Assembly: GCA_965227405.1 (NCBI GenBank)
Contig: OZ245758.1
Coordinates: forward strand, 2,996,338 to 3,060,337
Direction of reading: 5' to 3'
Length of the DNA: 64,000 nucleotides
Origin: Polyangiales bacterium
GTDB lineage: Bacteria; Myxococcota_A; Polyangia; Polyangiales; Houyiibacteriaceae
Positions 1 to 41,113 of the stretch are shown here, in pieces. Within the stretch, counting starts at the first letter, position 1; each line of letters begins with the position of its first letter. The notes beneath the pieces were generated by a model. That model did no database searches, was not told the DNA's origin, and saw nothing but the letters and a program-made list of their open reading frames with translations. The position numbers and the translations under genes were made by a program.

Positions 1-333
1 CTCGAAAGCGATCTCAAGAAGATGCACAAGCTCATGCGTAAGTGGTCCACGGACAAGGATATGTGGAAGCGGCGTACGAGCATCTTGTGTCAGCTGAAGC
101 TCAAGGACCGCTTGGATACGAAGCTACTTGTCGACTGCATGAAGCCGTCGATGGAGAGCAAAGAGTTCTTTTTGCGCAAAGCGATCGGGTGGGCGTTGCG
201 AAGCCACTCCTACGTCGACCCCGATTGGGTCATCGCGTACGTGAACAAACACGCGAACGTTCTGAGCGGTCTGAGCAAGCGAGAGGGGTTCAAGGCGTTG
301 ATGCGCAACGGAGTGGTCAAAGCGATCCCTTGA
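1..333 (+). CDS. DNA alkylation repair enzyme (AlkD/AlkC-like HEAT-repeat DNA glycosylase), C-terminal fragment; 5' end lies upstream of the window
   Basis: Frame 1 is open from position 1. The C-terminal sequence ...EFFLRKAIGWALRSHSYVDPDWV...LSGLSKREGFKAL matches the conserved end of the DNA alkylation repair enzyme family (B. cereus AlkD type). Stop TGA at 331-333. Confidence 0.6.
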   Translation, partial: LESDLKKMHKLMRKWSTDKDMWKRRTSILCQLKLKDRLDTKLLVDCMKPSMESKEFFLRKAIGWALRSHSYVDPDWVIAYVNKHANVLSGLSKREGFKALMRNGVVKAIP

Positions 334-353
334 TGGACCCAGATCCTCGCGCA

Positions 354-3577: not shown

Positions 3578-4110
3578 TAGTTCTTCTACTCGTGGTTTCC
3601 GCGGGATGCCTCGAAACGAAAACCGCCCGCGGTGGACAGTGCTCACTCACGAGTGATTGCGATGCGCCGTTGATCTGTCGGTTCGAAGCGTGTCGCGTGG
3701 AATGCACGACCAACCGCGACTGCGCACTTGGACTCGATTGTCTGTACGACGAAAACCAACTCGGTGCGTGTCAGCTTCCCGAAGAAGCGTCCTGTATGGA
3801 CAACAACAACTGCGGGGAAGGTCAGATCTGCGCAGTGCGTGATGATGGTCGCGCGCAAACGTGCACCACCGAGTGTGGACCGGACCGCGCGTGTCCTCCT
3901 GGTGCTACGTGTACCGACGGTGCGTGTCTGGACCCCGACGACCAGCCATGTCTCTACAACACCGACTGTGACGACGCGAAGGCGTGTGCGTTTGACTTGA
4001 GGTGTCGCGACGAGTGCCTGACCGATGAAGACTGCCGCGCGCCGCTGACCTGCCGTGAGTTCGATACGTCGGCTGGTCTGCAGCGCTTGTGTGATGTGCT
4101 TCTGAACTGA
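3565..4110 (+). CDS. Short cysteine-rich lipoprotein (paralogue 3; Cys-rich modules only, no RCC1 domain)
   Basis: GTG start at 3565 overlapping the end of the previous gene. Signal peptide RALIVLLLVVSAGC. Two to three copies of the same Cys-rich module. Ends TGA at 4110, overlapping the next start. Confidence 0.6.
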   Translation: MRALIVLLLVVSAGCLETKTARGGQCSLTSDCDAPLICRFEACRVECTTNRDCALGLDCLYDENQLGACQLPEEASCMDNNNCGEGQICAVRDDGRAQTCTTECGPDRACPPGATCTDGACLDPDDQPCLYNTDCDDAKACAFDLRCRDECLTDEDCRAPLTCREFDTSAGLQRLCDVLLN

Positions 4111-5732
4111 TGCGCGTCCTCGTCCTCGTCCTCCTGGTCGGTTGCGTGGAAGCGCGCTCCGGTGCCGGCGCAGAATGCTCACGCAACAGTGAGTGCGCTG
4201 CACCTTTGGTCTGCGCCCTGGAGCGGTGTCGGAACGAGTGCAACAGCAGTCGAGACTGTCCGATCGGAGCATCCTGCATCCGAAGTGAATTGGACTTCGG
4301 GGTTTGCCAGCTCGATGACGAGTTGAGCTGCAGTGGCGAGTGTGCGGGTGATCTGGTGTGTGCCGAAGGTCAGTGCGTCAACTCGTGTGATGAGGGCTGC
4401 CTTCCCGGCAGCGAGTGTCGGGACGGAGGTTGTATCGAGTCGGCTGTATCGTGCGACGTCGACGCGGAGTGCTCCGAAGGTCAGGTCTGCCTCTCCGGGC
4501 GTTGCCAGCGTGAGTGTATTTCGATGCGTGATTGTCGGTTTGGCCGCTCGTGCGTGGATGGCCGCTGCGTGGTGGCGTCCATCGATGCGGGTCGAGATGT
4601 GGAGGTGCCGTTCGATGCGTCGCTGGACGCACCAGCTACAGACACAACGCCCGAGATGTTCTGCGATGCATCCGCGGTTCCAGCCATCGATGTTGCCGTG
4701 GGACGCGATCACGCGTGTGTCGTGTTAAGCACAGGCTCGGTCTACTGCTGGGGTGACAACGCACTCGGTCAGATTGGGAGCGCCGCTTTGGTGGTGGGGG
4801 TCACGGACGTTTGGTCAGCCTTTCCTGCCGACGTGAGCGATGCGCAGGAGGTGTCCGCGGGTGTTGCGCACACCTGCGTTCGTCGTGCCGATGACACCGT
4901 CGAGTGCTGGGGCGACAACACCGACGGCGGGTGTGGTGTTGGGCGAACCGACCGGATTGTGCGTGTCCCCGAGTCGATTGGGTTGCCCGGCGTGGCTCAG
5001 CTGGCGCTTGGCAGCCGCGCTTCGTGTGCTCGCGTCGGAACCACGGTCTCGTGTTGGGGGCGTCAGGTGAACAACGGTTTGGCCAACGGGGTGACGAGCG
5101 GAAATGCCTTCGCTCCGGTTGTGGCCACCGAACTGATGAATGTGCGCACCCTTGCATACGCGTATGCCGGCGGTGCTGCCTTGGACGTGAGCGGAGCACT
5201 TCGAGTCTGGGGCGACCATCATCCGGTTGCGGACACACCGGCGTACGTCTCTCCCAGCTTTACCGATGCCACGATGCTCGCGGTCGGCGCCGAGCACATC
5301 TGTTTGCTGCGATCGGACGGAAGTGTGTGGTGTGCGGGTGATAACGAGTTTGGTCAGCTGGGCGATCCATCGCGTGACACGAGTTCGGGACCCGACCTGT
5401 CTTGGACTCGGCTTCCGAGCCTGAGCGACGTGGTGCAGGTGGATGCAAGTGACAACAACACCTGTGCGCGAACGAGCACCGGGGACTTGTGGTGTTGGGG
5501 AATCAATACCAACGGTTCACTTGGTGTTGGGATGTCGGGAGTCGTCACGGAGCCGACCCAGGTCGAACTCCCAAGTGCGGCGGACGACGTGAGTGTCGGG
5601 AACGACGCCAGTTGTGCCATTGCGACAGGCTCGGTGTACTGCTGGGGCGCAAACTTGGCTGGACGGCTAGGGTTCCCGCAGACGTTCGGCTCGACAAACG
5701 AGCCAACGATCCCCGTGGAGTGCTTGCCGTGA
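4110..5732 (+). CDS. Cys-rich module + RCC1-repeat lipoprotein (paralogue 4)
   Basis: ATG at 4110 shares its A with the preceding TGA. Signal peptide MRVLVLVLLVGC. The N-terminal module is about 80% identical at protein level to paralogue 1. RCC1 blades present (YCWGDNALGQIG, ECWGDN, WCAGDNEFGQLG, YCWGANLAGRLG). Confidence 0.75.
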   Translation: MRVLVLVLLVGCVEARSGAGAECSRNSECAAPLVCALERCRNECNSSRDCPIGASCIRSELDFGVCQLDDELSCSGECAGDLVCAEGQCVNSCDEGCLPGSECRDGGCIESAVSCDVDAECSEGQVCLSGRCQRECISMRDCRFGRSCVDGRCVVASIDAGRDVEVPFDASLDAPATDTTPEMFCDASAVPAIDVAVGRDHACVVLSTGSVYCWGDNALGQIGSAALVVGVTDVWSAFPADVSDAQEVSAGVAHTCVRRADDTVECWGDNTDGGCGVGRTDRIVRVPESIGLPGVAQLALGSRASCARVGTTVSCWGRQVNNGLANGVTSGNAFAPVVATELMNVRTLAYAYAGGAALDVSGALRVWGDHHPVADTPAYVSPSFTDATMLAVGAEHICLLRSDGSVWCAGDNEFGQLGDPSRDTSSGPDLSWTRLPSLSDVVQVDASDNNTCARTSTGDLWCWGINTNGSLGVGMSGVVTEPTQVELPSAADDVSVGNDASCAIATGSVYCWGANLAGRLGFPQTFGSTNEPTIPVECLP

Positions 5733-7336
5733 CGCGGACGCAGATCGTGGTCGCATGCATTGTGCTCGGTGGATGTGCCGAGTCACCGAAGGGGCTTTCC
5801 GCGTCGTGCGATCGATCAAGTCAGTGCGACACGCCACTGGTGTGTCGGTTGGAGGTTTGTCGCAACGAATGCCGACGCTCGCGCGACTGCTCCGTTGGAT
5901 CCATCTGCTTGGTTGACGACAGTGGGTTCGGCGCGTGTCGGCTTTCCACGGAATCGGAGTGTGAACCTGGAGGCTGTCCTGCGCCGACGGTCTGTTTCGG
6001 CGGTCAGTGCCGCAACGCGTGTGTTGACGAATGTGCCGAAGGTCAATGCTTGGACGCGGATGGGAGCCCTTGTTTGGGTGGGGAGTGTGCATGTGTAGTC
6101 GAGCGACCGACGGGTTGTGTGCTTGATACTGATTGCGCATCCGGGCTCGTTTGTCGTGCTGGAACCTGTCTCGAGGAGTGCATCTCCGATCGCGATTGTG
6201 CGTTTGGAGCACGTTGTGTTGCAGGGCGCTGCGCTTCGGACGACGCGAGCACCGACGCGCCCGTCTTGGATGCATCCCTGGATGCGCGCGATGCCGGAGT
6301 TGCTGTGCTGCCGGACGTCGAAAGCGTCAGCGCAGGACAACACCACACCTGCGCCATCAGTTCAGGGATGGTGTGGTGTTGGGGGAATTTCGAGTGGGAA
6401 GTCCCTCCGTCGGTGATTCGACACTACCCCCCGCGTCCGATGGGGCTCGCAGCGACTCGTGTCGTGACCAGTCCGACCGCGCGCCACGTTTGTGCGATCG
6501 ACACGTCGGGCGGATTGCATTGTTTAGGCGTCAACACCAACGGTGTCGTCGGCGATGGATCCATGGTCACGCGGGAAACGTTCGTCGCTGTGACCGGGCT
6601 TGCATCAGACGTGCGTGATGTCGCCGTTGGGGTGAAACATACGTGTGCGATTCTCGGTGACGAGGTCTGGTGTTGGGGCAATGCGTTGGATGGCGCGTTG
6701 GGCGACGGTCGAATGAACGGGGTCGCCAATGAACCGGTCAATATCGGTTTGAACAATGCCGTCGACATCGCCGCGGGTCAGGACACAACATGCGCGGTTC
6801 GCGGAGATGGAAGCTTGTGGTGTTGGGGTTCCAACAACCGCGGCCGAAGTGGGCTCGGTGTATTGGATCGCGCACTCGTTCCGACGGAGGTTCCGCTCTC
6901 TTTTGCGGTTCGCTCAGTCGCGATGAGCCCGTTCCGGGGATGCGTCGTGGCCGAGGACGACACAGTTCACTGTTGGGGTCTCGACTTTGGCCCGCTCTTC
7001 GACCTGCGCGTGCCTACGGAAATGGTCGGTGTCCGCGCGCTCTCGGTTGCGGTTGGCTTCGCCCACATCTGCGGGGTGACTCCCGACAATCAAGCTCGTT
7101 GCTGGGGTGAAGGCTCAAGCGGGCAACTCGGACACGAGGACGCTCCTTCGTACCTCGACGTGCCCGGTGCTCTCGTGGTTGGGCTTGATGGGGTCGACGC
7201 GGTGGTTGCCGGGCATGGTCACAGTTGCGCGCGAACCTCGGGTCAACTCTGGTGCTGGGGATTCAACGATCGGGGTCAGTTGGGCGCGGGTCATCGTGCG
7301 TCCACACATGTGCCCGTTCCTGTGCTTGCCCCGTAG
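5729..7336 (+). CDS. Cys-rich module + RCC1-repeat lipoprotein (paralogue 5)
   Basis: GTG at 5729 overlaps the stop of paralogue 4 (GTGA). N-terminus VTRTQIVVACIVLGGC is a lipoprotein signal. Cys-rich module SCDRSSQCDTPLVCRLEVCRNECRRSRDCSVGSIC. RCC1 blades present (WCWGN, HCLGVNTNGVVGDG, WCWGSNNRGRSG, LWCWGFNDRGQLG). The track's 5489 start would overlap paralogue 4 in another frame and is rejected. Confidence 0.7.
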   Translation: MTRTQIVVACIVLGGCAESPKGLSASCDRSSQCDTPLVCRLEVCRNECRRSRDCSVGSICLVDDSGFGACRLSTESECEPGGCPAPTVCFGGQCRNACVDECAEGQCLDADGSPCLGGECACVVERPTGCVLDTDCASGLVCRAGTCLEECISDRDCAFGARCVAGRCASDDASTDAPVLDASLDARDAGVAVLPDVESVSAGQHHTCAISSGMVWCWGNFEWEVPPSVIRHYPPRPMGLAATRVVTSPTARHVCAIDTSGGLHCLGVNTNGVVGDGSMVTRETFVAVTGLASDVRDVAVGVKHTCAILGDEVWCWGNALDGALGDGRMNGVANEPVNIGLNNAVDIAAGQDTTCAVRGDGSLWCWGSNNRGRSGLGVLDRALVPTEVPLSFAVRSVAMSPFRGCVVAEDDTVHCWGLDFGPLFDLRVPTEMVGVRALSVAVGFAHICGVTPDNQARCWGEGSSGQLGHEDAPSYLDVPGALVVGLDGVDAVVAGHGHSCARTSGQLWCWGFNDRGQLGAGHRASTHVPVPVLAP

Positions 7337-15632: not shown

Positions 15633-18600
15633 ATGACATCACGCCTTGTTCTCGCGTTCGCCGTCGTCTTTTCGTCGATGGCGCAGGCCCAAACCACTGG
15701 GCTCGAAGTATCACTCTACGGAACCACGCAAGCTGCCTACGGCGGTGCGCTTCGCATGAGCGGTGTGGCGTTCCAAACGCAAGGGTACGCCGAGCTTCGA
15801 ACACTTGGTGGTGCACAGATCGAAGCGCGACTGCGCGACTACGACTCGTCGGAGCGGCAGTGGCAAACGATCGAAACGGTCACGGTGCGGTCCAACGCGT
15901 CGGGTGCGTTCGATTTTGTGCTCGAGGTTCCTGAACGTCGCTTCCGCCAAGTGCAGCTGCAGATCGAAGTGCGTGGTGCGGGCAAAGAGCGCACGTTTGA
16001 GTACCCGGTGCAGCTGCGTTCGCCTTTGGCGTTTGACCTGCTCTTGGATCGCAACCGGTACGAGCCGGGCGAGACCGTGCACATGTGGAGTCGTCTCTTT
16101 CGCAGCGAAGACGGCGCGCCGGTAAGCGGTCGTACCGTGGCGGTGCGTGTTCACGATCCGAGTGGCCGGCCCATGGTCGAGCGTTCGGTGCAGGTGGCGC
16201 AAAGCGGGGCGGCGACACTCGATATCGAGCTACCGGATTCTGCAGCCGACGGTGTGTACGCGGTCGACCTGCGCTTGGACGACAGCATTGCCGGTGCCAC
16301 AGCGCGCCGAACGTTCCAAGTGGCACGGCGCACCGTGGAGCGTGTCTTGGTGGAAACCACGATCGACCAACGCGTGGTGCCTCCTTCAGGACAAATCACC
16401 GGCAACGTCACAGTGACCACGCCCAGTGGTGCACCTGTTGTAGGTGCCGAGGTGCAGTTGCAAATTGGTTCGGATCGTCGTCAGCGCCAGGTTGTTCAGA
16501 CCGATAGCGAAGGCGTAGCCGCGATCCGCATGCAAGCACCCGCGTACTTGGTGGGTGATGTGCAGGCGCAATCGCTGCAGGTTCGTGTGCAGCACTCGGC
16601 GCACGGCACGTTGCACTCCAGTGCCTCGTTCTTGCTTTCGCGAGTCGAGTGGCAAGTCACCGCGACTGCGGCCAACGGCGCGATCGTTCCCGAGGTCGAC
16701 ACCGAAGTCGTGATCAGCGTCAACGATCCACGCGGTGAACCAGCACCCGCAGGCACGAAGGTGACCGTGACGGGTGATGCGATTCGTGGAGGGTCGCGCG
16801 AAGTGGAAATCGATGCGCATGGACTCGCCGTCGTTCCGGTGCGTGTCGCCGATGGTGATGCGGGTCCACTTCGCGGATCCACGCCGGGCTGCAGCGGAAT
16901 TTCGGGCGTGCGTGTGGAGGTCGACGTGCAGACCGAGCGCCCCGCGTTCGCGCGTGTGTGTCTGGCCGTCAACCCTAAGGCTCAAGTGCGTCCCCGCGTG
17001 GTGCGAAGCGTGGTTGCGCCCGGGTCGATCGTGGAAGTCGATCTTGCTCGTCATCCCGACGTGCGCGGCCGCCCTGTGTTGGTGGAAGCGTTGATGAACA
17101 ACATCGCGATCAGCGCGGCCTTTGCGAGTGGAGCACGTGCACGAGTTCAGCTTCCGGCCGACGTCGGCGGCATCGTGCAGATTCGAGCTCGACCGCTATT
17201 GCCGCATGATGCGCGACATCCCTTGGATCAACCCGGCGGTTCTTCGCTTGGCACCGGTTCGTACGACGCGGTTCTAGTCCGTCCGGCCGACGCGTTCGGG
17301 TTTGAGATTGGTCGCGAACAAGAGACGTACCGCGTTCGCGAAACCGCGCAGTTGGGCTTGCGCACCACACAATCCTCGCCTCAAGCATGGGCAACGTTGG
17401 TCGCGCGCGATTTGGCTGCGCATGGCGGCGAGACGCCGTACTCGGTCGCATGGATGCGCGGTGCGTTGGATGCAGCAGTGACCGCGCCCGATGCGCAGGG
17501 CAACGACCTGCTTCTTCGCGCCGCGTTGTTGCGAAGCCTGCCGCAAGACAACCAACCGCGTCGTGAGCCGCCCTTGGTGCAGCCGTACTGGCGCAGCTCG
17601 TACCCACGGGGTGGCCAGGGCGGGACGTTGCGCGATCCCGTGGCGGATCGTGACCGGATGCGACGTCGACAAATCGGCCAGCTGATGATGCAGCTCGAAC
17701 GTTTTGTGTCGTCGTGGGATCTCGAGCGCGCCGTTCGAGACGGACTTCTGGTGCGTCGTGGCAACGGATACGACTTTCATCCGGATGCGATTGCGAACTT
17801 GGTGCGCGCCCGCCAGCTCGGAGAAGCGATCAGCGACACCTTGGGTGGCGATACCGCCAGCATCGCAATGATCCGCGCGGTGGATGCATCGTTCACGTTC
17901 GACGCTGTGGCTCGTCGCATCGCCCGTGGTCGTTTGGTGATGTTGATGATGGCGATTTCGCGTTTCTCCAACCCGGATGACGCAAACGCAGCACGCGCGA
18001 GTCAGGGCCAACCTCCCGAACGCTGGCTTTCACGCATGGTGCAGTTGGGAGTGTTGCGTCCGAACCAGCTTCTCGATCCCTGGGGACGCGCGTTTGAGTT
18101 TCGTCGTGCAGGTACACCGCAGCTGGTCATCACCGATCGTGCACCTGCGTGGGAGCTGGTCAGTGCAGGACCCGACGGACGCTTTGGTTCGCGCGACGAC
18201 GTTCGCAATCCCTTCCAGCGATTGGTTGCCGAAGGTTCGCCCTATGCGGTGGTGTCGGGTGAAGACCGGTTGATGAAAGCATTGAGCACGCTCGCTCCCG
18301 GACCTCGCGTGTTGCAGGCGATGGCGACCGCGTATGCGAGCGTGAGTCTTCAGGCTCTCGAAGAGCAGCGACAGCGCGCTGTGAGCGCCAACGCGTCGGA
18401 AGGCGCGGAGGTCATGGACGACATGCTTGGCGGCCTAGCTACGCGAGGTGCTGGTGGCATGGCAGCACAGTCGGCGCCCCGACGGTCGGCCCGTGCGCGT
18501 CCCGCACCTTCACCGGCGATGGACGCGGCCGGCGAGGTCATGGCGGAAGCCGACTTCGAAGACGAAGATGGCGAGCCAGAGCCCGAGGAAGAATCCGAAC

Positions 18601-20759
18601 GACGTGAGCGCAACGCGCAGACTCAGGGAGTGTTCGACCCTATTGCGAACCTCAACGCGATTGTCCGCGAGCGTTTTCCCGCCACACTTCATTTCATCGG
18701 CGAGGTCGCCTTGGATGGCACGCTGACCACGGTTCCGCTCGAGCTCGCCGACGCGTTGACGACGTATCGCGTGGAAGCGATCGCGTGGACTTCGAGTGGT
18801 TGGCTGACAACGGCCACCGTCGATGTGAAGGTTGATCAAGAAGCGACTGTCGACGCTCCCACACCACCATTTGGCACTGTGGGCGACACGTTGCGCTTGC
18901 CGGTTCGGGTGGGCAACCGCACACGCCAGCCGCTCGAAGTACGCGTTGTGGTCGAGCACGAAGGCGAAGGTGGCGTGACGATTCCGCAACCGTTGACGCT
19001 CACCGTTCCGCCGCGTGACGCGATCGAGAGCACGGTCGAAGTGAACCTGACGGCACAAGGCGCCGGTTCGTTGCTGATTCGGGCCATGCGCGCGTCGGAT
19101 GAACGACCACTGGATGCCGTGCGACGTCCCCTGACCGTGTGGAGCGATGCACGCTTGGTACGCGTGCGACGTGAGCTGCTCTTGGTCGACTCAAGTGGTG
19201 CTGAGCTGACCATCGATATTCCGGAAGATGCGAGTGAGCGCGGTGCGGGCGAACTTCGCGTGTTGCCGGCTACGGCGATCTTTGGCGACGTGACGCAGCT
19301 GACGCATCCCAGCGTGGGCTGGGCGCTAGCGTTGGTCGGCGAAACTCCGCCGGAGTCGTTGTTGGTCAACGCACGTCGCACGCTCCGCGCAGGCGACCCT
19401 GTGGAGGATCATCAGATTCACGGACCACCGGGTGTGCTGGCGATGGCTGCTGCGACGGTGTGGAAAGACGCGACCGTTCAGGATCCTGTTCTGAGACGTG
19501 CACTGCGATCGATCAGTCGCATTCTCGGCGACCCCACCAATACGCCCTCGCCGGGTCAAACCTTGGCCATGGCTGAAGTGCTCGCGGCGCTGGCTCCGTG
19601 TGTGCAAGAGGGTCGTCCTGCAGTTCGTGGTGTGCTGATCGAACTGACCGATGAACTGCGTCGTCGCGTTGGAAGTGGTGCGGTCGCACAGTCCGAGGCG
19701 CCGATTCTTTGGGCGCGCAGTGCAGCCGCGTTGGCTTTGGTGGGCGGGGATACGCGTGCACGCGAACTGCTGCGCCGAGCGGAGCGACACGTGGTGCGTT
19801 TGGATCGCGAAGCATTCTTGGAAGAGCCCTCACAAGCGGGCATTCCCGTCGCGCGCATCACGCCTACGGCGATCATGGCGATCGCGTGGGCGGCGTTGGA
19901 AGAGCGGGGACGTGCGATGGCGTACTTGCGTCACTTGGTGTCGCTCCATCGTGGTGCAGAGCACTGGCAGGCCGATGCACGCGTGATGGCTGCAGCCGCG
20001 GCGGGCACTGTCGCAGGCCGAGGTGCAGGAAGCACGCTGAGCGGAACCTACGGCGGCCAGTCTCTCTCGTTCAGTGCGCTTGATGACGCACCCGACTCAC
20101 GCATTCGTGTGGCTGAACTGCCGAGTGCAGTTGCGGGTTCCCATCGCGTTCGCGTGAACGGACCACGTCTCGCGTTGGTGTACCTCGATGTGCGTTATGG
20201 GCGGCCTTGGTCAGCGGCTCCTGACCGTGCGGCGCGAATGGACTTGGAGATCGAAGGGGATCTCGGGCCGCGTGATGCGCGTGCAGGCATTGCGCTGACC
20301 TTGCGCAACCGCGCACCACGTCTTGCGACCTCACCGGTGGTCGAGATCGATCTGCCGGCAGGGACCGAGCTCGACGAACCCACGCGCGCGGTGTTGCGCG
20401 GTCTCACCGTCGTGGAACCCACGGTGGAAGGACGTACGCTGCAATTGCATCTGCGGCCCTTGGCACCCGGTGGTCGTGCACGTGTACCGCTGCCCCTTCG
20501 TTGGAGTGTGGGTGGAACGCTCCGTGGGTTGGGCGTAACCGCGTACGACGATGCCACAGCACCTTCGACCGAGGTGCGACCGCTCAGCATTCTTCCTTCG
20601 CGCGAACTGACGATTGCCGATGAAGGACAAGAGCCCGAGCAAGCAGAAGCCGAGCGAACACCAACGCCTCAACCGCCTCCACCACCGCCACCCTTACCAC
20701 GTCCGGTCGATGCGTTTGGCCCTGTCGCGATGCTTCTTGAAGGAGGTGCGCGATGCTGA
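15633..20759 (+). CDS. Giant secreted protein (1708 aa), alpha-2-macroglobulin-like MG-domain signature + GspG-like pseudopilin motif; paralogue 1
   Basis: Sec signal MTSRLVLAFAVVFSSMAQAQ. MG2-like motif LLLDRNRYEPGETVHMW. Multiple Ig-like beta regions. GspG C-terminal-like segment ...LLDPWGRAFEFRR...ELVSAGPDGRFGSRDDVRNPF. Helical alpha/alpha-like region. Pro-rich tail. No CGEQ thioester motif seen. Confidence 0.45.
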   Translation: MTSRLVLAFAVVFSSMAQAQTTGLEVSLYGTTQAAYGGALRMSGVAFQTQGYAELRTLGGAQIEARLRDYDSSERQWQTIETVTVRSNASGAFDFVLEVPERRFRQVQLQIEVRGAGKERTFEYPVQLRSPLAFDLLLDRNRYEPGETVHMWSRLFRSEDGAPVSGRTVAVRVHDPSGRPMVERSVQVAQSGAATLDIELPDSAADGVYAVDLRLDDSIAGATARRTFQVARRTVERVLVETTIDQRVVPPSGQITGNVTVTTPSGAPVVGAEVQLQIGSDRRQRQVVQTDSEGVAAIRMQAPAYLVGDVQAQSLQVRVQHSAHGTLHSSASFLLSRVEWQVTATAANGAIVPEVDTEVVISVNDPRGEPAPAGTKVTVTGDAIRGGSREVEIDAHGLAVVPVRVADGDAGPLRGSTPGCSGISGVRVEVDVQTERPAFARVCLAVNPKAQVRPRVVRSVVAPGSIVEVDLARHPDVRGRPVLVEALMNNIAISAAFASGARARVQLPADVGGIVQIRARPLLPHDARHPLDQPGGSSLGTGSYDAVLVRPADAFGFEIGREQETYRVRETAQLGLRTTQSSPQAWATLVARDLAAHGGETPYSVAWMRGALDAAVTAPDAQGNDLLLRAALLRSLPQDNQPRREPPLVQPYWRSSYPRGGQGGTLRDPVADRDRMRRRQIGQLMMQLERFVSSWDLERAVRDGLLVRRGNGYDFHPDAIANLVRARQLGEAISDTLGGDTASIAMIRAVDASFTFDAVARRIARGRLVMLMMAISRFSNPDDANAARASQGQPPERWLSRMVQLGVLRPNQLLDPWGRAFEFRRAGTPQLVITDRAPAWELVSAGPDGRFGSRDDVRNPFQRLVAEGSPYAVVSGEDRLMKALSTLAPGPRVLQAMATAYASVSLQALEEQRQRAVSANASEGAEVMDDMLGGLATRGAGGMAAQSAPRRSARARPAPSPAMDAAGEVMAEADFEDEDGEPEPEEESERRERNAQTQGVFDPIANLNAIVRERFPATLHFIGEVALDGTLTTVPLELADALTTYRVEAIAWTSSGWLTTATVDVKVDQEATVDAPTPPFGTVGDTLRLPVRVGNRTRQPLEVRVVVEHEGEGGVTIPQPLTLTVPPRDAIESTVEVNLTAQGAGSLLIRAMRASDERPLDAVRRPLTVWSDARLVRVRRELLLVDSSGAELTIDIPEDASERGAGELRVLPATAIFGDVTQLTHPSVGWALALVGETPPESLLVNARRTLRAGDPVEDHQIHGPPGVLAMAAATVWKDATVQDPVLRRALRSISRILGDPTNTPSPGQTLAMAEVLAALAPCVQEGRPAVRGVLIELTDELRRRVGSGAVAQSEAPILWARSAAALALVGGDTRARELLRRAERHVVRLDREAFLEEPSQAGIPVARITPTAIMAIAWAALEERGRAMAYLRHLVSLHRGAEHWQADARVMAAAAAGTVAGRGAGSTLSGTYGGQSLSFSALDDAPDSRIRVAELPSAVAGSHRVRVNGPRLALVYLDVRYGRPWSAAPDRAARMDLEIEGDLGPRDARAGIALTLRNRAPRLATSPVVEIDLPAGTELDEPTRAVLRGLTVVEPTVEGRTLQLHLRPLAPGGRARVPLPLRWSVGGTLRGLGVTAYDDATAPSTEVRPLSILPSRELTIADEGQEPEQAEAERTPTPQPPPPPPPLPRPVDAFGPVAMLLEGGARC

Positions 20760-23700
20760 GGCTTTCGTTGGCTCTGGTCCTGCTCGCGAATGTGGCGAGC
20801 GCGCAAACCTCGACTGCACGACGCGTGAACCGCGGCGAAGTGACGGGCGTCGAACTCCAGATCGAAGGTGCGCTGACTGCGCGACGCGGCGAAACACTTC
20901 GCTGGAGTCTGGTTGCGTACGAAGTCGTTGGGCTTGATCAGCTGCGTCCGGCTGCCGGTGCAGAGATCACGATCGCCACGTCGCTCAAGCCAGGCGAGTT
21001 CGCCGCTGAAGCCACCGCGGATGCGCGCGGGCGAGCGTTGGTGGAAATCGAAGTCCCCGAGGATGCGGGAGCGAACTTTGGCGCCAACGTGCGCGTGCAT
21101 GCGCGTCGTGGTGTGTCGCGACGTTTTGACCTGCAGGTTCAACTGCAGGAGCCGCGTGTGTTGGAACTTCGCGCAGCACCCGCGGCGCGTGCGGGCGGAA
21201 CCCTTCCGGTGTTTGGGCGCTACCAGCGCTTTGACGGCCAAGCGATTCCCGAAGCGGCGATCGAACTCCAAGCCTACGACAGCCGGGGACCACTCGGTCG
21301 TCCGGTACGCGTCGAGTCGGATCTCGCTGGTGTGTTCACCGCGGACCTGCGCATTCCTCGCGATGCCGTCGCGCCTTTGCGCGTGACTGCGAAAGGTCCC
21401 GAGGACGAAGAGGAACGGCGCATTGAAGCCGCTGCGGCTGCAGTGTTGCTGGAACCGGCGGCTCCCCCGCTGGTGGTCGCCGTGTCGACCGACGGTGTGG
21501 TGCATGGCTCGCGTGCACGCGTTCCGGTTCAGGTGGTGATCCGACGTGCCGATGGGCGTCCCGTGGAGGGCGCGCTCGTGCGAGTGGGCAACCAACCCGT
21601 ACCGCTTACGCGCGAAGAAGAGGAAGCACAGCGACGTCTTCCGCTGACCCGAACGGACGCGCGCGGACGTGCCACGCTTGAATACGAGGCGCCGCGCGTC
21701 ACATCGGGATACCGCGACGTGAACGTGCAAGTCCAAGTAGGGCGCGCAGGCATTGGGCGTGCAACTGGCTCCGCGCGCTTGCGCATCACCAACCAGTCGC
21801 ACTTTGCGCAGCTAAGCGTGGAGGGTGGCGCATTGGTTCCGACGTTGGGTGCGCGCCTCTTTGCCGAAGTCGTTCGTGCAGATGGTCATCGCGCTCCGGC
21901 AGGTGTGCCGGTGGTCTTTACAGGCCCGCGCATTGGTCGACACGAGGCGACCACCGACGCGTCCGGTATTGCTGTGGCGTCGATGCAGGTGGGCCCCAAA
22001 GCCGACGAGGATCGTTGTGGCGGCGATGCGGTCACGGCAGTGGACATGAAGGTGGCCAACAACGACCTGATTCGTCTCTGTGTTCCGGTCGATCCCGACG
22101 CGGCGACGCGTGTGACGGTGGGCGAAGCTCTGGTCGGTCCCGGCGACACGGTGTCGGTGGAGATCGAACGCACGGCTGCAGCCGCGCGACTTCCTGTCGC
22201 GGTGACCGTCTTCAACGCTCAGAACCATCCGGTGCACACGACGGTTCTTGCACCGCGCACCAACACGCTGGAGATCGAAGCGTCAGGTCGAGGCGCCATG
22301 CGCGTTCGAGCGCGACCCTTGGTGGGTACGCGTCAGGAAGAAGCGCGAGGAAGCTTTGCTGCGTTCTGGGTCGCGCCGGATCGAAACCTCAACGCAGCCG
22401 GTGCAGCCGAGGGATCAACCAACACAGTCAACGTGCGCAGCACGGTTCAAGGTGCCGAACACGCGACCACTCTGGCGGTGTTGTGGCCGTTGGGGCAGCC
22501 GTTCGACGTCGGTCCTGCAACGCTTTCCGATCCGCGTGGGGAGTGGTCCGCCAACGTCGTGGCTGCCCACCTTGCGCGCACCACGCCGCTGGACATCGCG
22601 GCGCCGATTCGTTTGCGTGGACGCACGACGAGTCCCGCACCCGAACCCGCGTCGCCTGAGCAGTACGGACTTCTTCGCGATCCCTGGCGCGCCAGTGCGC
22701 GTTTTGTCGAAGGTCGATTGGCGTTGGTCTTCCGCGCAATTGAACAGCGCATCGAATCGGCGGTTCCTGAACAGATCGACGAAGTTGCCTCGGTCGAGCG
22801 AGGTCGCTTTCGCTTCAACCGCCAGCTCCTGGCGTCGTTGCAAAGCGGACAACTGGGTTCCGAAGGTGCAACCGGTCTTGGCGGCGAGCCACTGACGATC
22901 GAACGTCTCGAAGCACTGGATCGCGCGTTCACGTACGACAACGTCGCGCGTCGGATTACGCGACGACGTCTGTTCAAGATCCTGTTGGCGTTGCGCGCGT
23001 TCGTGCAGCAGCAAGCGCTGGATCTGGCGTGGACGCGTCCCGGGGATCCCACGTTGTGGATCGAGCGCCTGCGCAACCAGTACGTGCCGCAGGTCGGGCA
23101 GTTGCGTCCCGCGGAGCTCGTGGATGGTTGGGGGCGTCCGTTCCGTCTTCGCGCGACCGGCCGTGCGCGCTTCACCCGCGTGCAGCCCGTTGACGGTTAT
23201 GAGCTGGTGAGTGCCGGTCCCGACGGACGTTTTGGAAACGGCGACGACGTGGCCAACCCGATCGCGCGTGTGCTTCCCAACGGTTCGCTCTACGGGCGTG
23301 CGGTGGGTGAGGATGCTCTGGTGGCGCGTCTCCAAGGCGTTGAGTTGGGTCGCGCGACGCTCGACATGGCAGCGCGCGTGTTTGGTGTGGGTGCTGTCGG
23401 TATTCCCGCACCGAGTTCCACACCGCGTGGTGTGTCGCTGGGTTCGTTGCCCGCTCCGATCGAACCGGATCGTTGGGCACTTGCCCTTCGGCGTCCGACA
23501 CAGCCCGCGGACAGTCGAGTGCAGCGCATCGAAGGCAACGCGTCGGTCGAGGTGGGTGATGAACCGCGTACGTGGCGCGCTGCCCTTCTCACGATCACGC
23601 CCGATGGCTCGCGCCACATTCACGAGGATGGTGTGCGTGCTGGCTCGAGTGTGTTGCGCGACTTGATCCTGCCTTCGCGCTTGCGCGTAGGTGAGCCGCT

Positions 23701-25390
23701 CAACTTCCAGCTTCATCTCACCGACGTGAGCAACAACGGGACCCAGCTCAACATTCAGGCGAGCGCCGAGGGCATCGACGTCAACGTCGACTCGAGCCTG
23801 CAGTTGCCGGCCGGTGAAACGCGTACCTTGCCAGTTCGTCTCGAAGGTCGAGCGCCGGGCCGAAGCGAAGTTGTCGTGCAGGTGACAACCAGTGAAGGCA
23901 CGCAGTCGGTGCGCGGTCGGGTTGATGTGGACCGTGGACTTCATCCGGTGCGTCGACGCACCAGTGCACTTCTCGGCGAAGGCAGTTTGCGCATGCCCTT
24001 TGATGCCCCGAGTGGTTCGCAAGCGCGGTTGGTCCTGGTGGCGCCGCGCGCACTCGCTGCCGATCCGGACTTTGCCGATATGTGGCGAGACGACCCGGCG
24101 TTGATCGCGTGGAGCGAGACGCTGGCAGGTCGCACGCTAAGCGATGAGCTGCGCAGTCGCCTCTTGCGTGCACAGCGCGGTGGAGTGTTTGAAGGCCGCG
24201 AGCGCGCGATTTCGACAGCTGCTGCGATTTCGGCGCTGAGTGCCGTGTTCGATGAGCGCGGTCGGCCTGATCCTGAAGCGCAGGCCGCACGTCAGCGCGC
24301 GGTAGGCACGCTCAACGGGTTGGGTCAGATGCAAGATCCGACGGGGCACGGTGCGCTGCGTGCCCAAGCAGCGATCGTGACCGCACTCGCGACTTCGGGG
24401 GTGAGCGACCTGGACTCGCGTGAAGCCTACGATCCGGTCGGGCGCATCTTGCGCACCTGGTTGCCGCCGTTGCGACGCGCGCTGCGTGATGTTCCGGGTG
24501 AGCCCACGCTCTTGGCACGAGCATCTGCAGCATTGCTTCTCGCGGACCCGCGGGACGGGCATGCGCGAGCCATGTTCAACCGACTCGTTGAATCGCTTGA
24601 GAGTGCTCCCGGTGGTCAACGCGTGGTTCCAAGTACGGAACGGGCAAGCGTGGAAGAGAGCGTGCAAGCTTCGATCGCGGCAGCCCTCGCAGCGCACCAG
24701 TTGGGACGAAGCGAACTCGCGCGCGACCTGTTGGGGTACGCCGGTCGTCACACGGCAGACATCGCACGCAACGGCGGCGAGAGCGCGTTTTGGTGGTTCG
24801 CGGCCAACGCGTACGGTGCGTTTGGCGATTCGCCGGACAAGGTGGTGGTTCGCATCGACGGAACGCGCCACGAAGTCGACCTGAGCAACGGAAGCGCGAC
24901 GTTGCCGCTTTCGGGCAACAGCACGATTCGATTCGAGGGGGGCCAAGGTCCGGTGCTTGCGCGTGCGGAAGCCGTGTTTGGTCGCGAGCTGACGGCGCGC
25001 CGCGATGCGCCGCTGCGCTTGGAGCTTCGAGGAGAGTCGGGTGGCGTGGGCGAGCTCGCAGCATACGAGTTGGAGATCACCGCAACCCGCGCCGTGAACT
25101 CGGGTGTGCTGGATGTTCAGTTGCCGGCTGCTGTCGATGCGGACGAACGCTTCTTGGCGGTGCTGCAGGGCAATGCGCACGTGCGGCAGGCTGAAGCGCG
25201 CAATCCGGGATTCGTGCGGATCTGGTTGGCGCCGATCGCCGATGAGGCGCGCGCGACCATTCCGATTCCGCTGCGTTGGCAGGCCGTCGGGCAGGTTCGT
25301 GGACTTGCGATGATCGCGTACGAGGCGGATCAACCGGGCGAGATGACGATCTTGCCGCCACGTACACTCACCATTGCGGACGCCGACTGA
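20753..25390 (+). CDS. Giant secreted protein (1545 aa), paralogue 2 of the preceding gene
   Basis: ATG at 20753 overlaps the upstream stop by 7 nt. Signal MLRLSLALVLLANVASAQT. Same architecture, including the GspG-like segment LVDGWGRPFRLR...YELVSAGPDGRFGNGDDVANPI and a similar C-terminal end. Confidence 0.45.
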   Translation: MLRLSLALVLLANVASAQTSTARRVNRGEVTGVELQIEGALTARRGETLRWSLVAYEVVGLDQLRPAAGAEITIATSLKPGEFAAEATADARGRALVEIEVPEDAGANFGANVRVHARRGVSRRFDLQVQLQEPRVLELRAAPAARAGGTLPVFGRYQRFDGQAIPEAAIELQAYDSRGPLGRPVRVESDLAGVFTADLRIPRDAVAPLRVTAKGPEDEEERRIEAAAAAVLLEPAAPPLVVAVSTDGVVHGSRARVPVQVVIRRADGRPVEGALVRVGNQPVPLTREEEEAQRRLPLTRTDARGRATLEYEAPRVTSGYRDVNVQVQVGRAGIGRATGSARLRITNQSHFAQLSVEGGALVPTLGARLFAEVVRADGHRAPAGVPVVFTGPRIGRHEATTDASGIAVASMQVGPKADEDRCGGDAVTAVDMKVANNDLIRLCVPVDPDAATRVTVGEALVGPGDTVSVEIERTAAAARLPVAVTVFNAQNHPVHTTVLAPRTNTLEIEASGRGAMRVRARPLVGTRQEEARGSFAAFWVAPDRNLNAAGAAEGSTNTVNVRSTVQGAEHATTLAVLWPLGQPFDVGPATLSDPRGEWSANVVAAHLARTTPLDIAAPIRLRGRTTSPAPEPASPEQYGLLRDPWRASARFVEGRLALVFRAIEQRIESAVPEQIDEVASVERGRFRFNRQLLASLQSGQLGSEGATGLGGEPLTIERLEALDRAFTYDNVARRITRRRLFKILLALRAFVQQQALDLAWTRPGDPTLWIERLRNQYVPQVGQLRPAELVDGWGRPFRLRATGRARFTRVQPVDGYELVSAGPDGRFGNGDDVANPIARVLPNGSLYGRAVGEDALVARLQGVELGRATLDMAARVFGVGAVGIPAPSSTPRGVSLGSLPAPIEPDRWALALRRPTQPADSRVQRIEGNASVEVGDEPRTWRAALLTITPDGSRHIHEDGVRAGSSVLRDLILPSRLRVGEPLNFQLHLTDVSNNGTQLNIQASAEGIDVNVDSSLQLPAGETRTLPVRLEGRAPGRSEVVVQVTTSEGTQSVRGRVDVDRGLHPVRRRTSALLGEGSLRMPFDAPSGSQARLVLVAPRALAADPDFADMWRDDPALIAWSETLAGRTLSDELRSRLLRAQRGGVFEGRERAISTAAAISALSAVFDERGRPDPEAQAARQRAVGTLNGLGQMQDPTGHGALRAQAAIVTALATSGVSDLDSREAYDPVGRILRTWLPPLRRALRDVPGEPTLLARASAALLLADPRDGHARAMFNRLVESLESAPGGQRVVPSTERASVEESVQASIAAALAAHQLGRSELARDLLGYAGRHTADIARNGGESAFWWFAANAYGAFGDSPDKVVVRIDGTRHEVDLSNGSATLPLSGNSTIRFEGGQGPVLARAEAVFGRELTARRDAPLRLELRGESGGVGELAAYELEITATRAVNSGVLDVQLPAAVDADERFLAVLQGNAHVRQAEARNPGFVRIWLAPIADEARATIPIPLRWQAVGQVRGLAMIAYEADQPGEMTILPPRTLTIADAD

Positions 25391-25411
25391 GCGGCGCTAC
25401 TCTCCGCCGCC

Positions 25412-26053
25412 ATGAGCGACCCCATTGCCTTCCTCAAAGACACCTTTCCTGCCCTCTTCAACAAAGGCGTAGCTGGGCTCGAAGCCAAAGCTGCGGGAGG
25501 TCACGAGAAAGCCGGCAAGATCCTCGCGGACGTGAAAGGCGCGTCCGGAAACGTTGTGCTCGTCGTCGAAGGCGAGGGCGAGGTCTACATGAGTTTTGGC
25601 GACGGCAAGATGGAAGCCGTCGATGCGAAGCCGACCGACAACGTGAAGCTGGCCGTTGCTGCTCCGGCGGCTGCGGTGAAGATGCTGTTGGGCGAAGCCG
25701 AAAAAGAAGGCGAGCTCGAAGAGGACAAAGCGGCGAAGCGCGCAGCACGAACGGTGTCGAAGCGCATGCAAGACGCGTTGGGCGACCAGTCGTTGCTCTT
25801 TCACATCGTGATCGAGAACGTGCCCGAGCAGGGAACCGTTGCCGTGAAGATCGGACTCAACGCGCCTGAGCCTCCTGAAGAGCCGAAGTTTAAAGCGACG
25901 ATTGCGTTCGAAGACTTGGAAGCCGCGCGCAACGGCGAAGTGAACCCGCAGATGTTGTTCATGGGCGGGAAGCTGCGTATGGAAGGCGACTATTCAGCGG
26001 CGCTGCAACTCGGTATGCAGCTGATGACGCAAGCGCAGCAAGACGGCTTCTAG
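25412..26053 (+). CDS. SCP2 sterol-carrier/lipid-binding domain protein
   Basis: C-terminal signature MLFMGGKLRMEGDYSAALQLGMQL typical of the SCP-2 family. Confidence 0.6.
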   Translation: MSDPIAFLKDTFPALFNKGVAGLEAKAAGGHEKAGKILADVKGASGNVVLVVEGEGEVYMSFGDGKMEAVDAKPTDNVKLAVAAPAAAVKMLLGEAEKEGELEEDKAAKRAARTVSKRMQDALGDQSLLFHIVIENVPEQGTVAVKIGLNAPEPPEEPKFKATIAFEDLEAARNGEVNPQMLFMGGKLRMEGDYSAALQLGMQLMTQAQQDGF

Positions 26054-39450: not shown

Positions 39451-39473
39451 GCAAAATCAGGGGGTTCCCCCTG
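39451..39473 (-). terminator. Candidate rho-independent terminator for the NMT1-like gene
   Basis: On the minus strand: GGGGG-AA-CCCCC hairpin (plus-strand cagggggttccccctg at 39458-39473) followed by a U-rich tract (plus-strand AAAAT at 39453-39457). Confidence 0.3.
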
Positions 39474-39489: not shown

Positions 39490-40392
39490 TCAAGCGAAGG
39501 CGAAGTCGTTCGTCCAGAGCTCTTCGGGCGCCGGAATGCTCTGCGTCAGTCGTTTCGAGTGCAGCCACGTCGCTAGCTCCACGTAGAACGACGGGCTCAT
39601 CGAGAGGTCGAACGAAAAGCAGGGACGCGTGGCGTCGTACACCTTTCGCTCAAACGCATCATCTGAGCTTAGCTGGGCTGCTTTGCAGAACTCGGTCCAG
39701 CAGGCATCTGCGTTTGTGTAGATCTCGTCGAGACCTCGCCGGAGCAGCGCGATTGCATTGCGCACTTTGTCCGGGTCGCGCTTCAGCACCTCGGGCGTTG
39801 TCACGACGATCAACTGGCAGAAGTCTGGAATCTTCCAGTGCTTGAGCGAGAAGAGATTGACGTCATGGCCACGATGACGCGCTTCGAAGGGCTCGTAGTT
39901 GCCAAACACCAGGGTCGCGACGTCAGCATCTCCGTCGATCAAAGCATCGGTGTGTTGGAACCCTCGGTTGATGCGTTGGAAGTCGTCATCGTTCGCCGTT
40001 CCACCGTCGGCTTCGATCATGGCGCGAACAATGCCCGGACCGTTGGGGCCTGGAGCACCGGGATACTGAATGCGTGCGCCCACCATGTCGCGCGGTCGGT
40101 CGATGCCGCTCGACTTGAGGCACATCACGCCACCGTTGGTGTGGAAGAAGCGGGCGACGCCGACAAAGGGGCGCCCCGCAGCGCGCTCTTGCACCAAGTG
40201 AAGCGGTTCGGTGATCGCCAGGTCGAGCTCACCGCGTTCCAACATCGCGAGTCCGTCGAAGTGGCCTGGTGGTTGAACGATCTCGAGCTCCTCGCCGAGT
40301 TCGCGGTCCCATTGACGGAACTGCGGCACGAGGAAGGGGAGATGGTCCACATTGAGGAACCACTCCAAGCCGATCCGAATCGCCACGCCCAA
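39490..40392 (-). CDS. NMT1/THI5-like (SsuA/ThiY-type) substrate-binding domain protein
   Basis: NMT1/THI5-like signature (VAIRIGLEWFLNVDHLPFLVP...). 300-aa class. Start set at TTG 40392 or GTG 40386 so that the gene does not run through the palindromic element upstream; the track's start at 40476 is rejected. Confidence 0.5.
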   Translation of the reverse strand: MGVAIRIGLEWFLNVDHLPFLVPQFRQWDRELGEELEIVQPPGHFDGLAMLERGELDLAITEPLHLVQERAAGRPFVGVARFFHTNGGVMCLKSSGIDRPRDMVGARIQYPGAPGPNGPGIVRAMIEADGGTANDDDFQRINRGFQHTDALIDGDADVATLVFGNYEPFEARHRGHDVNLFSLKHWKIPDFCQLIVVTTPEVLKRDPDKVRNAIALLRRGLDEIYTNADACWTEFCKAAQLSSDDAFERKVYDATRPCFSFDLSMSPSFYVELATWLHSKRLTQSIPAPEELWTNDFAFA

Positions 40393-40402
40393 GCTTAGCT
40401 CA

Positions 40403-40519
40403 GTAAACCCTGGGGACAGGTAAACCTGTTTACCCAGCCTCGGCGCGGATCGGTCGCAAGTAACCACGTTTTGCAAAACGAAGGTCCGGTAAACCAGTTT
40501 ACCTGTCCCCAGGGTTTAC
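40403..40519. promoter_or_regulatory. Nested palindromic element in divergent intergenic region: 23-bp perfect inverted repeat arms, each containing GGTAAAC-N2-GTTTACC, plus central CGTTTTGCAAAACG palindrome
   Basis: Left arm 40403-40425 gtaaaccctggggacaggtaaac equals the reverse complement of 40497-40519. Perfect 14-bp palindrome cgttttgcaaaacg at 40467-40480. Located between divergent NMT1-like and PP2C genes. Confidence 0.6.
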
Positions 40520-40528
40520 TCTGCGAGG

Positions 40529-41113
40529 GTGTTGGTTTGGGCGGCGAGCGAGGTCGGCTTACGCGACGAACAACAAGATGCGTATGCCGTGCATCCTTGG
40601 TGCCTCATGGTTGCAGACGGGATGGGCGGTCACGAAGGTGGTGCGACCGCGGCACGCGTTGCAGTCGAAGCCGTTGTTGGCGAACTCGAAGAGAGTGACG
40701 ACGTCGAAAGTGCGATCGGTTGGGCGTCGCGCTGTGTTCAAGACGAAGGCGGTGGAGGCACCACGTTGGTGGTTGCACTCGTCCGCGATGGTGGAGTCAC
40801 GATCGGTTGGGTCGGCGACTCACGCGCATACCGCGTTCGCGACGGTGAAGTGGAATGCCTCACCGACGACCACGTGGGATCCGATGGCGGTCTTGCGCGT
40901 TGGCTTCCCGACGAACCTGCGCCCGATGTTGTCGAGGTCGAGTTGCGTGCTGGCGACTGCCTTGTGTTGTGCACCGATGGTGTATCGAGCGTGGCCGAAG
41001 ACGCGCTGAACCAACTTGCAGAACACGACGAACCGGCGGAGTGGCTGGTTGAACAAGCACTCGACGCAGGGTCCGACGACAACTGCACAGCGATCGTTTT
41101 TCGCGTCGCTTAG
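40529..41113 (+). CDS. PP2C-family Ser/Thr protein phosphatase (small, PrpC/Stp-like)
   Basis: Motifs DAYAV, VADGMGGHEGG, GDSRAY, DGV, DDNCTAIV. GTG start immediately after the palindromic element. Confidence 0.65.
   Translation: MLVWAASEVGLRDEQQDAYAVHPWCLMVADGMGGHEGGATAARVAVEAVVGELEESDDVESAIGWASRCVQDEGGGGTTLVVALVRDGGVTIGWVGDSRAYRVRDGEVECLTDDHVGSDGGLARWLPDEPAPDVVEVELRAGDCLVLCTDGVSSVAEDALNQLAEHDEPAEWLVEQALDAGSDDNCTAIVFRVA

Follow-up and report, generated by a model that had tools for sequence, protein, structure and literature searches.

Paired palindromic operators are found in divergent promoter regions such as those of tetR/tetA, with its sites O1 and O2, and of smtA/smtB, with its 7-2-7 and 6-2-6 repeats. 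Among established operators of winged-helix regulators are dyads of the 7-2-7 type, such as the HypR box GTATCAAAATTGATAC (PMC3351151). The bioO operator of E. coli bioA/bioBFCD is likewise located between divergent genes and follows the consensus TTGTAAACC-[N14/15]-GGTTTACAA (PMC545781). REPINs, in turn, are defined by two imperfect-palindrome units (core about 20-60 bp) in inverted orientation that are joined by a spacer and form a hairpin in single-stranded DNA or RNA (PMC3116915).

The element compared here with these systems is a composite palindrome in a window of 64 kb, which is the whole stretch of DNA that was analysed (64,000 nucleotides). Most likely, it consists of two mirrored promoter/operator modules and is an ordinary kind of element. 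We estimate a probability of about 50% that it is a locus-specific mirrored promoter/operator region at which a candidate dimeric regulator binds. The features of the locus are as follows (positions in the window).

39458-39473, minus strand: terminator-like hairpin CAGGGGGAACCCCCTG followed by ATTTTG, directly past the stop codon of the NMT1-like gene
39490-40386, minus strand: NMT1/THI5-like gene, 298 aa, no signal peptide (Pfam NMT1, 6e-42)
40392-40397, minus strand: putative -10-like hexamer TAAGCT of the TAnnnT type, found by eye, 5-6 nt before GTG 40386
40402-40520, no strand assigned: whole composite palindrome, 119 bp, from the inverted-repeat search
40402-40434, no strand assigned: left arm AGTAAACCCTGGGGACAGGTAAACCTGTTTACC with the hexamers GTAAAC (40403), GTAAAC (40420) and GTTTAC (40428), including the perfect 23-mer 40403-40425
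40419-40434, no strand assigned: left 7-2-7 dyad GGTAAAC-CT-GTTTACC, candidate dimer-binding site
40467-40480, no strand assigned: perfect 14-bp palindrome CGTTTTGCAAAACG, one occurrence in the 64-kb window
40488-40520, no strand assigned: right arm GGTAAACCAGTTTACCTGTCCCCAGGGTTTACT with the hexamers GTAAAC (40489), GTTTAC (40497) and GTTTAC (40514), including the perfect 23-mer 40497-40519
40488-40503, no strand assigned: right 7-2-7 dyad GGTAAAC-CA-GTTTACC, candidate dimer-binding site
40517-40522, plus strand: putative -10-like hexamer TACTCT of the TAnnnT type, found by eye, ending 6 nt before the PP2C GTG
40529-41113, plus strand: PP2C-type Ser/Thr phosphatase gene, 194 aa, GTG start (Pfam PP2C_2, 3.7e-16)

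The initial annotation had placed the element between divergent NMT1/THI5-like and PP2C genes, in the space of their promoters, and both the Pfam assignments and the gene layout agree with this. The intergenic gap measures 142 bp (40387-40528), of which the element fills 119 bp; if it were removed, 23 bp would remain between the genes. The PP2C protein was also matched by the NCBIfam model Stp1/IreP (5.5e-29, under the family cut-off), and neither flanking protein carries a DNA-binding domain according to Pfam and NCBIfam. As had been described, GTG 40529 of the PP2C gene follows the right 23-mer, which ends at 40519, after 9 nt. From the end of the right arm the distance is 8 nt, and on the opposite side the arm end lies 15 nt from the GTG of the NMT1-like gene and 9 nt from an alternative TTG. 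The gene content of the window, with several Ser/Thr kinases, PEGA, TPR and LRR proteins and a FadL-like outer-membrane protein, fits Myxococcota, and the source genome has a size of 9.07 Mb.

In the database, the NMT1-like protein is present as a single copy (P0001), with 328 aa and an annotated start at TTG 40476, from which the translation runs through the element. Its homologues comprise 297-300 aa, and their first residue is located 2-3 residues before a conserved RLGLEWF motif. Homologue length and motif position point to GTG 40386, or possibly TTG 40392, as the true start, and judged by these homologues the annotated start of P0001 appears to be 30 codons too early. The terminator-like hairpin past the stop codon, together with the Shine-Dalgarno sequence that the following lipoprotein gene has of its own, indicates that the NMT1-like gene is monocistronic. 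The same is indicated for the PP2C gene, since its 3' end overlaps a convergent SRPBCC gene. As both genes appear monocistronic and the gap between them is nearly filled, both promoters are expected inside the element or at its edges.

The arms of the palindrome had originally been reported as perfect 23-mers. The sequence GTAAACCCTGGGGACAGGTAAAC does occur exactly twice in 64 kb, at 40403-40425 (+) and 40497-40519 (-), but the inverted repeat is longer than this: the repeat search returned arms of 33 nt each, 31/33 (94%) complementary, with 53 nt between them. Two outer G-C pairs (GC 40398-99 with GC 40523-24) lengthen the fold to 127 bp (40398-40524). The hexamers of the left arm are arranged as GTAAAC-N11-GTAAAC-N2-GTTTAC and those of the right arm as the mirror image, and the 11-bp spacer has the same sequence in both arms. 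The two dyads, 69 bp apart from centre to centre, are present as claimed; they are not contained in the 23-mers, however, which hold the outer half alone, while the dyads extend inward. The arms differ at just two of 33 positions, and both are the central NN of the dyads, for which the chance is 1/528 with two random positions. As these central bases would not be read by a bound dimer, the 31 matching positions appear to be under constraint. The 14-bp palindrome is perfect and found at 40467-40480, as noted earlier, but does not lie midway; its centre is at 40473.5 and that of the element at 40461, which leaves 7 nt to the right arm and 32 nt to the left.

The palindrome is real, statistically robust and apparently single-copy in the sequence searched. 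It is by far the largest inverted repeat of the 64-kb window. In shuffles of the window, 0.00 occurrences of the 23-mer were expected. The dyad GGTAAACNNGTTTACC has two sites in 64 kb even when up to 2 mismatches are allowed (expected 0.04), and both dyads appear in the list of perfect 7-N2-7 palindromes of the window. Half of the GTAAAC/GTTTAC hexamers of the window (6/12) are located within the 119 bp; the window DNA has 61% GC, and this AT-rich hexamer is rare there. As a whole, the element is far beyond chance. Perfect 14-bp palindromes were observed 9 times in the window compared to 5.3 +/- 2.2 in shuffles, and the central one taken alone is weak evidence.

No canonical sigma-70 promoter was found at the element in a consensus scan, and no Shine-Dalgarno sequence at usable spacing could be read before GTG 40529 or the NMT1-like start. 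By eye, a GG-N11-GC motif around the central palindrome is one base too long for sigma-54, and GGTAAAC-N19-GTT resembles GGAAC-N16-18-GTT promoters of the ECF type loosely; neither was convincing. An NtcA/CRP-like class II arrangement, GTA-N8-TAC-N22-TAAGCT, fits the NMT1-like side alone and not the PP2C side, and was kept as a sub-option. An intrinsic terminator was rejected, as none was detected in 40250-40700, where a terminator-like T-run is lacking, and also because the element sits at the 5' ends of both genes. No Rfam family matched the window at gathering thresholds. A relaxed search gave a generic miRNA-hairpin model with 34 bits versus a threshold of 130 bits, which was considered spurious. 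The TPP riboswitch model (RF00059) had no match at E <= 10 in 40200-40750, and a TPP riboswitch upstream of the NMT1-like gene was rejected on the basis of this covariance-model search.

According to the initial annotation, dozens of copies of the element elsewhere in the genome would identify it as a mobile or REP-type repeat rather than a gene-specific operator. A repeat of this kind (a REPIN- or MITE-like, non-autonomous element of low or moderate copy number, with its RAYT or transposase encoded elsewhere, which may now supply both promoters) is a possible reading, but a considerably less probable one than the promoter/operator region. In anatomy the element matches a REPIN, with two inverted imperfect-palindrome units, a spacer, a long, very stable predicted hairpin (z ~ -8) and an extragenic position. 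From the start of one dyad to that of the next it measures 69 bp, compared to the 71 bp that are common for REP doublets in P. fluorescens SBW25 (PMC3116915). Arms that agree as closely as these, down to the 11-bp spacer, would be expected of a young repeat copy, and if each unit forms its own REP hairpin, the mismatches at the unit centres would be loop positions. With respect to the definitions of these repeats, the element has a palindromic-core unit in each arm (the 16-bp dyad) and inverted units with a spacer and a hairpin, as in REPINs, and terminal inverted repeats (the 33-nt arms), as in MITEs; it lacks a target-site duplication, the flanks being TTAGCTC and CTGCGAG, i.e. ...AAGCTTAGCTC and CTGCGAGGGTG... 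REPs and REPINs are present in tens to hundreds of copies per genome and are accompanied by a RAYT, a Y1 transposase whose gene is flanked by the repeat, and MITEs have multiple copies and a parent IS with matching ends, whereas one copy was detected here in the sequence searched, and no transposase or RAYT was found among the ORFs scanned in the window. A second copy or fragment was absent from the 64-kb window by pattern search and blastn, as was any other REP-like palindrome family by inverted-repeat search. The architecture GTAAAC-N11-GTAAAC-NN-GTTTAC was scanned as a pattern and gave 15 matches in 596 Gb of GTDB representative genomes and 25 in JGI metagenomes, which is chance level, and 0 in viral contigs; neither the spacer CCTGGGGACAG nor a mirrored partner arm was present in any of the representative-genome and metagenome matches. 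When stop-free six-frame translations of the element were compared with 5.8 billion proteins, including those of the source genome, P0001 alone was retrieved at E <= 10. This protein is the locus itself and served as built-in positive control, and no translated copy was found in other called ORFs. Thus, no dispersal was seen in the window, GTDB, JGI, viral contigs or proteins, although the test excludes a very high copy number alone. By our own calculation, N copies spread over 9.07 Mb would leave the 64-kb window without a second one with a probability of exp(-(N-1) x 0.007), which amounts to 0.71 at N=50 and falls to 0.05 only at N ~425, so that the window excludes nothing below ~400 copies. 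Within this limited power, the searches argue against a high-copy family. An insertion would, in addition, leave 23 bp for two divergent promoters, and a place between divergent start codons is atypical of REPINs and MITEs.

The strong similarity of the arms (31/33, even across a spacer that is dispensable in every binding model) could also go back to an inverted duplication that arose locally and recently and has hardly any sequence-specific function, if any; ordinary AT-rich sequence would then provide promoter activity, and no dedicated regulator would be involved. This would be in line with the lack of a cognate regulator nearby, of conservation support and of a canonical promoter, but it leaves the internal palindrome of each arm, a perfect 7-2-7 dyad, unexplained and does not account for the restriction of both differences to the dyad centres. 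Long perfect palindromes are, moreover, unstable in bacteria unless they are tolerated or selected, and we regard this duplication as unlikely. Still more doubtful is a structured transcript or DNA cruciform, i.e. a hairpin that serves in RNA processing or stability, a small RNA, or a cruciform with an effect on supercoiling-sensitive divergent promoters. The element as a whole, 119-127 nt, is indeed predicted to form the hairpin that had been proposed, and a very stable one (-71.4 and -73.9 kcal/mol as RNA, -38.7 kcal/mol as DNA; z-scores of -8.4, -8.1 and -8.2, with no shuffle equally stable), but such a fold is the automatic result of an inverted repeat. Since both genes are transcribed away from the element, an mRNA of either could hold both arms only if it started inside the opposite gene. 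Read as 5' leaders, the single arms gave fold z-scores of 0.03 and -0.33; the values for the central 53 nt were +0.75 and +0.84. As none of these parts exceeds its shuffles in stability, a role at the level of the transcript is unsupported, and neither an Rfam family nor a terminator-like T-run speaks for it. A BirA (biotin repressor) operator, finally, is suggested by the outer half-sites GTAAACC...GGTTTAC, whose core as well as the divergent setting are shared with bioO; the right arm reads GTAAACC-N17-GGTTTAC (40489-40519). However, the spacing is N17 instead of N14/15, the flanking TT and AA are missing, a third hexamer lies inside the would-be spacer, and the inner site of the left arm is CTGTTTAC and not GGTTTAC. 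No biotin genes are nearby, and the NMT1-like family is tied to thiamine. The BirA operator was therefore rejected on spacing, flanking bases and gene context and is very improbable. Integron attC, retron, dif site and IS66-type ends were dropped, as their defining core motifs or partner genes were lacking.

The reading as a mirrored promoter/operator region is supported because the same module is found at nearly equal distance from each start codon, because the mismatches are restricted to the dyad centres, because half of the hexamers of the window are local and the dyad has no further site in the window, and because the sequence searched gave no sign of dispersal. With two perfect 7-2-7 dyads, one facing each gene, the element has the kind of site expected for a dimeric regulator, which is a hyphenated perfect dyad of 14-16 bp that recurs at co-regulated promoters. 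Against this reading stand the lack of a canonical sigma-70 promoter, of an adjacent regulator gene and of a conserved neighbourhood, and the absence of the motif from orthologous upstream regions. For an operator, an identical 11-bp spacer would be superfluous, and it is more in keeping with a hairpin-forming repeat or with an inverted duplication of recent date. The earlier proposal of two operators flanking a third site is plausible, with the third site being off-centre and statistically weak on its own.

The promoter/operator region would consist of a 33-bp module in two copies that mirror each other, and each copy would face outward to one of the divergent genes. Outward from the start codon, each gene would have a GTTTACT end as the source of the -10-like hexamer, the 11-bp spacer and then the 7-2-7 dyad GGTAAAC-NN-GTTTACC. 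With the -10-like hexamers 5-6 nt before the start codons, the mRNAs would be leaderless, and for both transcripts a leader of a few nucleotides at most is probable. The two dyads, 69 bp apart, may be occupied by a dimeric regulator of the helix-turn-helix or winged-helix type whose gene lies elsewhere, possibly with help from the 14-bp palindrome nearby and from the outer hexamers, which resemble half-sites. The bound regulator would co-regulate the NMT1/THI5-like and PP2C genes. Depending on the true transcription starts, dyads over the -35 region (~-34) would lead to repression, or a dyad near -41 to class-II-type activation of the NMT1-like gene. From this arrangement we infer protein binding, promoter positions and the direction of regulation. 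The distance of 69 bp corresponds to ~6.6 helical turns, a spacing at which the dyads are not in phase for a simple loop, and this counts against the reading.

No regulator gene adjoins the element, and the sole transcription factor in 64 kb is the Lrp/AsnC protein at 35962, 4 kb away. Sites of the Lrp/AsnC family are usually AT-centred and 13-15 bp long, unlike the dyad, and this protein was rejected as the binder since nothing ties it to the element.

Compared to the tetR/tetA, smtA/smtB and HypR-type operators, the element is alike in having perfect 7-2-7 repeats, twice, in a short divergent region, and its arm variation is limited to the central 2 bp of the dyads, as in paired palindromic or 7-2-7 operators. 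It differs in that each dyad is part of a 33-bp mirrored arm, which also holds a further hexamer on the outside and an 11-bp spacer that is the same on both sides. In operators of the tet and smt type, the regulator is one of the divergent genes, whereas here neither the NMT1-like nor the PP2C gene encodes a DNA-binding protein, and an autoregulated operator of the tetR/tetA type was rejected on this ground.

The database scans also revealed tandem TGTAAAC-NN-GTTTACA dyads on the promoters of Chloroflexi operons for a membrane protein, an HTH_34 regulator and an ABC-ATPase. These share the half-site GTAAAC, the 7-2-7 geometry and a 17-bp period, equal to the spacing from outer to inner GTAAAC in each arm. 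The Chloroflexi dyads form tandem direct arrays over a clear TTGAC/TACAAT promoter beside the presumed regulator gene, whereas the element is mirrored; they are an analogue of the element and not a relative. The HTH_34 regulator was rejected as a local binder, as it has no homologue in the window. In Streptomyces (L011), a similar dyad pair adjoins a gene whose N-terminus looks, by eye, like an HTH of the Xis/AlpA type. Given these apparently different neighbours, HTH_34 and Xis/AlpA-type, the half-site may not point to a single family of regulators. Literature searches with the hexamers returned mostly primer sequences.

The closest homologues of the NMT1-like protein are 54-55% identical and come from Myxococcota assemblies. 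Across orthologous loci from four lineages, no conserved neighbourhood was found and PP2C never adjoined the NMT1-like gene; GTAAAC dyads were absent upstream of these orthologous genes, which are distant. In one Sandaracinaceae assembly, a TPP riboswitch (68.3 bits) precedes the orthologue, and thiM and thiE come after it, which ties the NMT1-like family to thiamine metabolism. The riboswitch in this orthologue further indicates that the gene family is regulated and that its regulation differs between lineages. It is conceivable, though unlikely, that a protein regulator has replaced the TPP riboswitch at the present locus and that mirrored cassettes with leaderless transcripts couple the thiamine-precursor gene to PP2C. 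Such a replacement would represent an uncharacterised bacterial transcription-factor route for vitamin-B1-related control.

Whether operator or repeat, the element calls for a correction of the annotation, in which the start of P0001 appears 30 codons too early and the element is translated. If it were a REPIN- or MITE-like repeat, it would mark a repeat family in this lineage, for which we know of none described so far. Palindromic control regions at single loci are widespread among bacteria, and the element, as a further example of this known type, challenges no current view. If the promoter/operator reading is true, the element would offer a clean, symmetric two-site target for finding the regulator in a poorly sampled myxobacterial lineage, and a thiamine-related gene would be linked to Ser/Thr phosphatase signalling without a riboswitch.

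In the database protein for the NMT1/THI5-like gene (P0001, 328 aa, NCBI/ENA), the annotated start is TTG 40476, and the 30 leading codons (window 40387-40476, minus strand) are translated palindromic element. According to the alignment of homologues, the true start is GTG 40386 or, alternatively, TTG 40392, and TTG 40476 is likely a start-codon mis-annotation. The 3' end of this gene and the remainder of the window contained the following features:

39458-39473, perfect 7-2-7 palindrome CAGGGGGTTCCCCCTG directly 3' of the NMT1-like stop codon, with a minus-strand T-run after it
36462-37226, plus strand, 254-aa ORF without a Pfam domain
30998-34255, minus strand, 1085-aa ORF with major-vault-protein (MVP) domains (Pfam MVP_shoulder, 2.8e-27, together with Vault_3 and Vault_4)
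25330-25427, minus strand, 98-nt 'tRNA-???' with a two-base anticodon (ARAGORN)
15633-25390, plus strand, alpha-2-macroglobulin-like protein (1708 aa), then a 1545-aa ORF
42-7336, plus strand, four RCC1-repeat proteins in a row

The palindrome CAGGGGGTTCCCCCTG with its T-run is likely an intrinsic terminator. The ARAGORN call is probably an artefact; an Rfam search found no tRNA at 25330-25427. An MVP homologue is unusual in a bacterium. The 1545-aa ORF gave no Pfam match.

Within the window, blastn aligned positions 35266-35285 (plus strand) with element positions 40478-40497 (ACGAAGGTCCGGT[G/A]AACCAG; 19/20 identical, E = 0.001). The matching stretch is part of the GluQRS-like gene and codes for the conserved WDEGPVNQ motif there; the resemblance is probably due to chance.

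Dyads sharing the GTAAAC half-site were found in contigs of other organisms in two arrangements:

Chloroflexi contigs, two tandem dyads (TGTAAACnnGTTTACAATACAAACnnGTTTACA): L012 ~5774-5810, L013 ~4144-4180, L028/L041 and L038/L042/L044
Clostridia MAG contig, approximately ten head-to-tail 17-bp units GGGTAAACGTGTTTATC: L009 ~5625-5790

The Chloroflexi tandem dyads overlap a TTGAC...TACAAT promoter, downstream of which lies a conserved operon comprising a membrane protein, an HTH_34 winged-helix regulator, and an ABC ATPase. They look like a conserved autoregulatory operator. The Clostridia array is iteron-like, repeats the same dyad and has no evident regulator gene adjoining it.

Among the loci carrying orthologues of the NMT1-like gene, the sole trace of neighbourhood conservation was a homologue of the 254-aa ORF (56% identical), which the Polyangiaceae LLY-WYZ-15 assemblies (L017-L019, 10655-11296) carry ~4 kb away from their NMT1-like gene. 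In Sandaracinaceae, a TPP riboswitch (68.3 bits; L021 5827-5919 and L022 3026-3118) was detected upstream of an operon consisting of the NMT1/THI5-like gene, thiM, and thiE. At L016, L017, L019, and L020, the remaining orthologous loci covered by the analysis, no riboswitch was present, which indicates that regulation of the NMT1/THI5-like family is non-uniform within Myxococcota.
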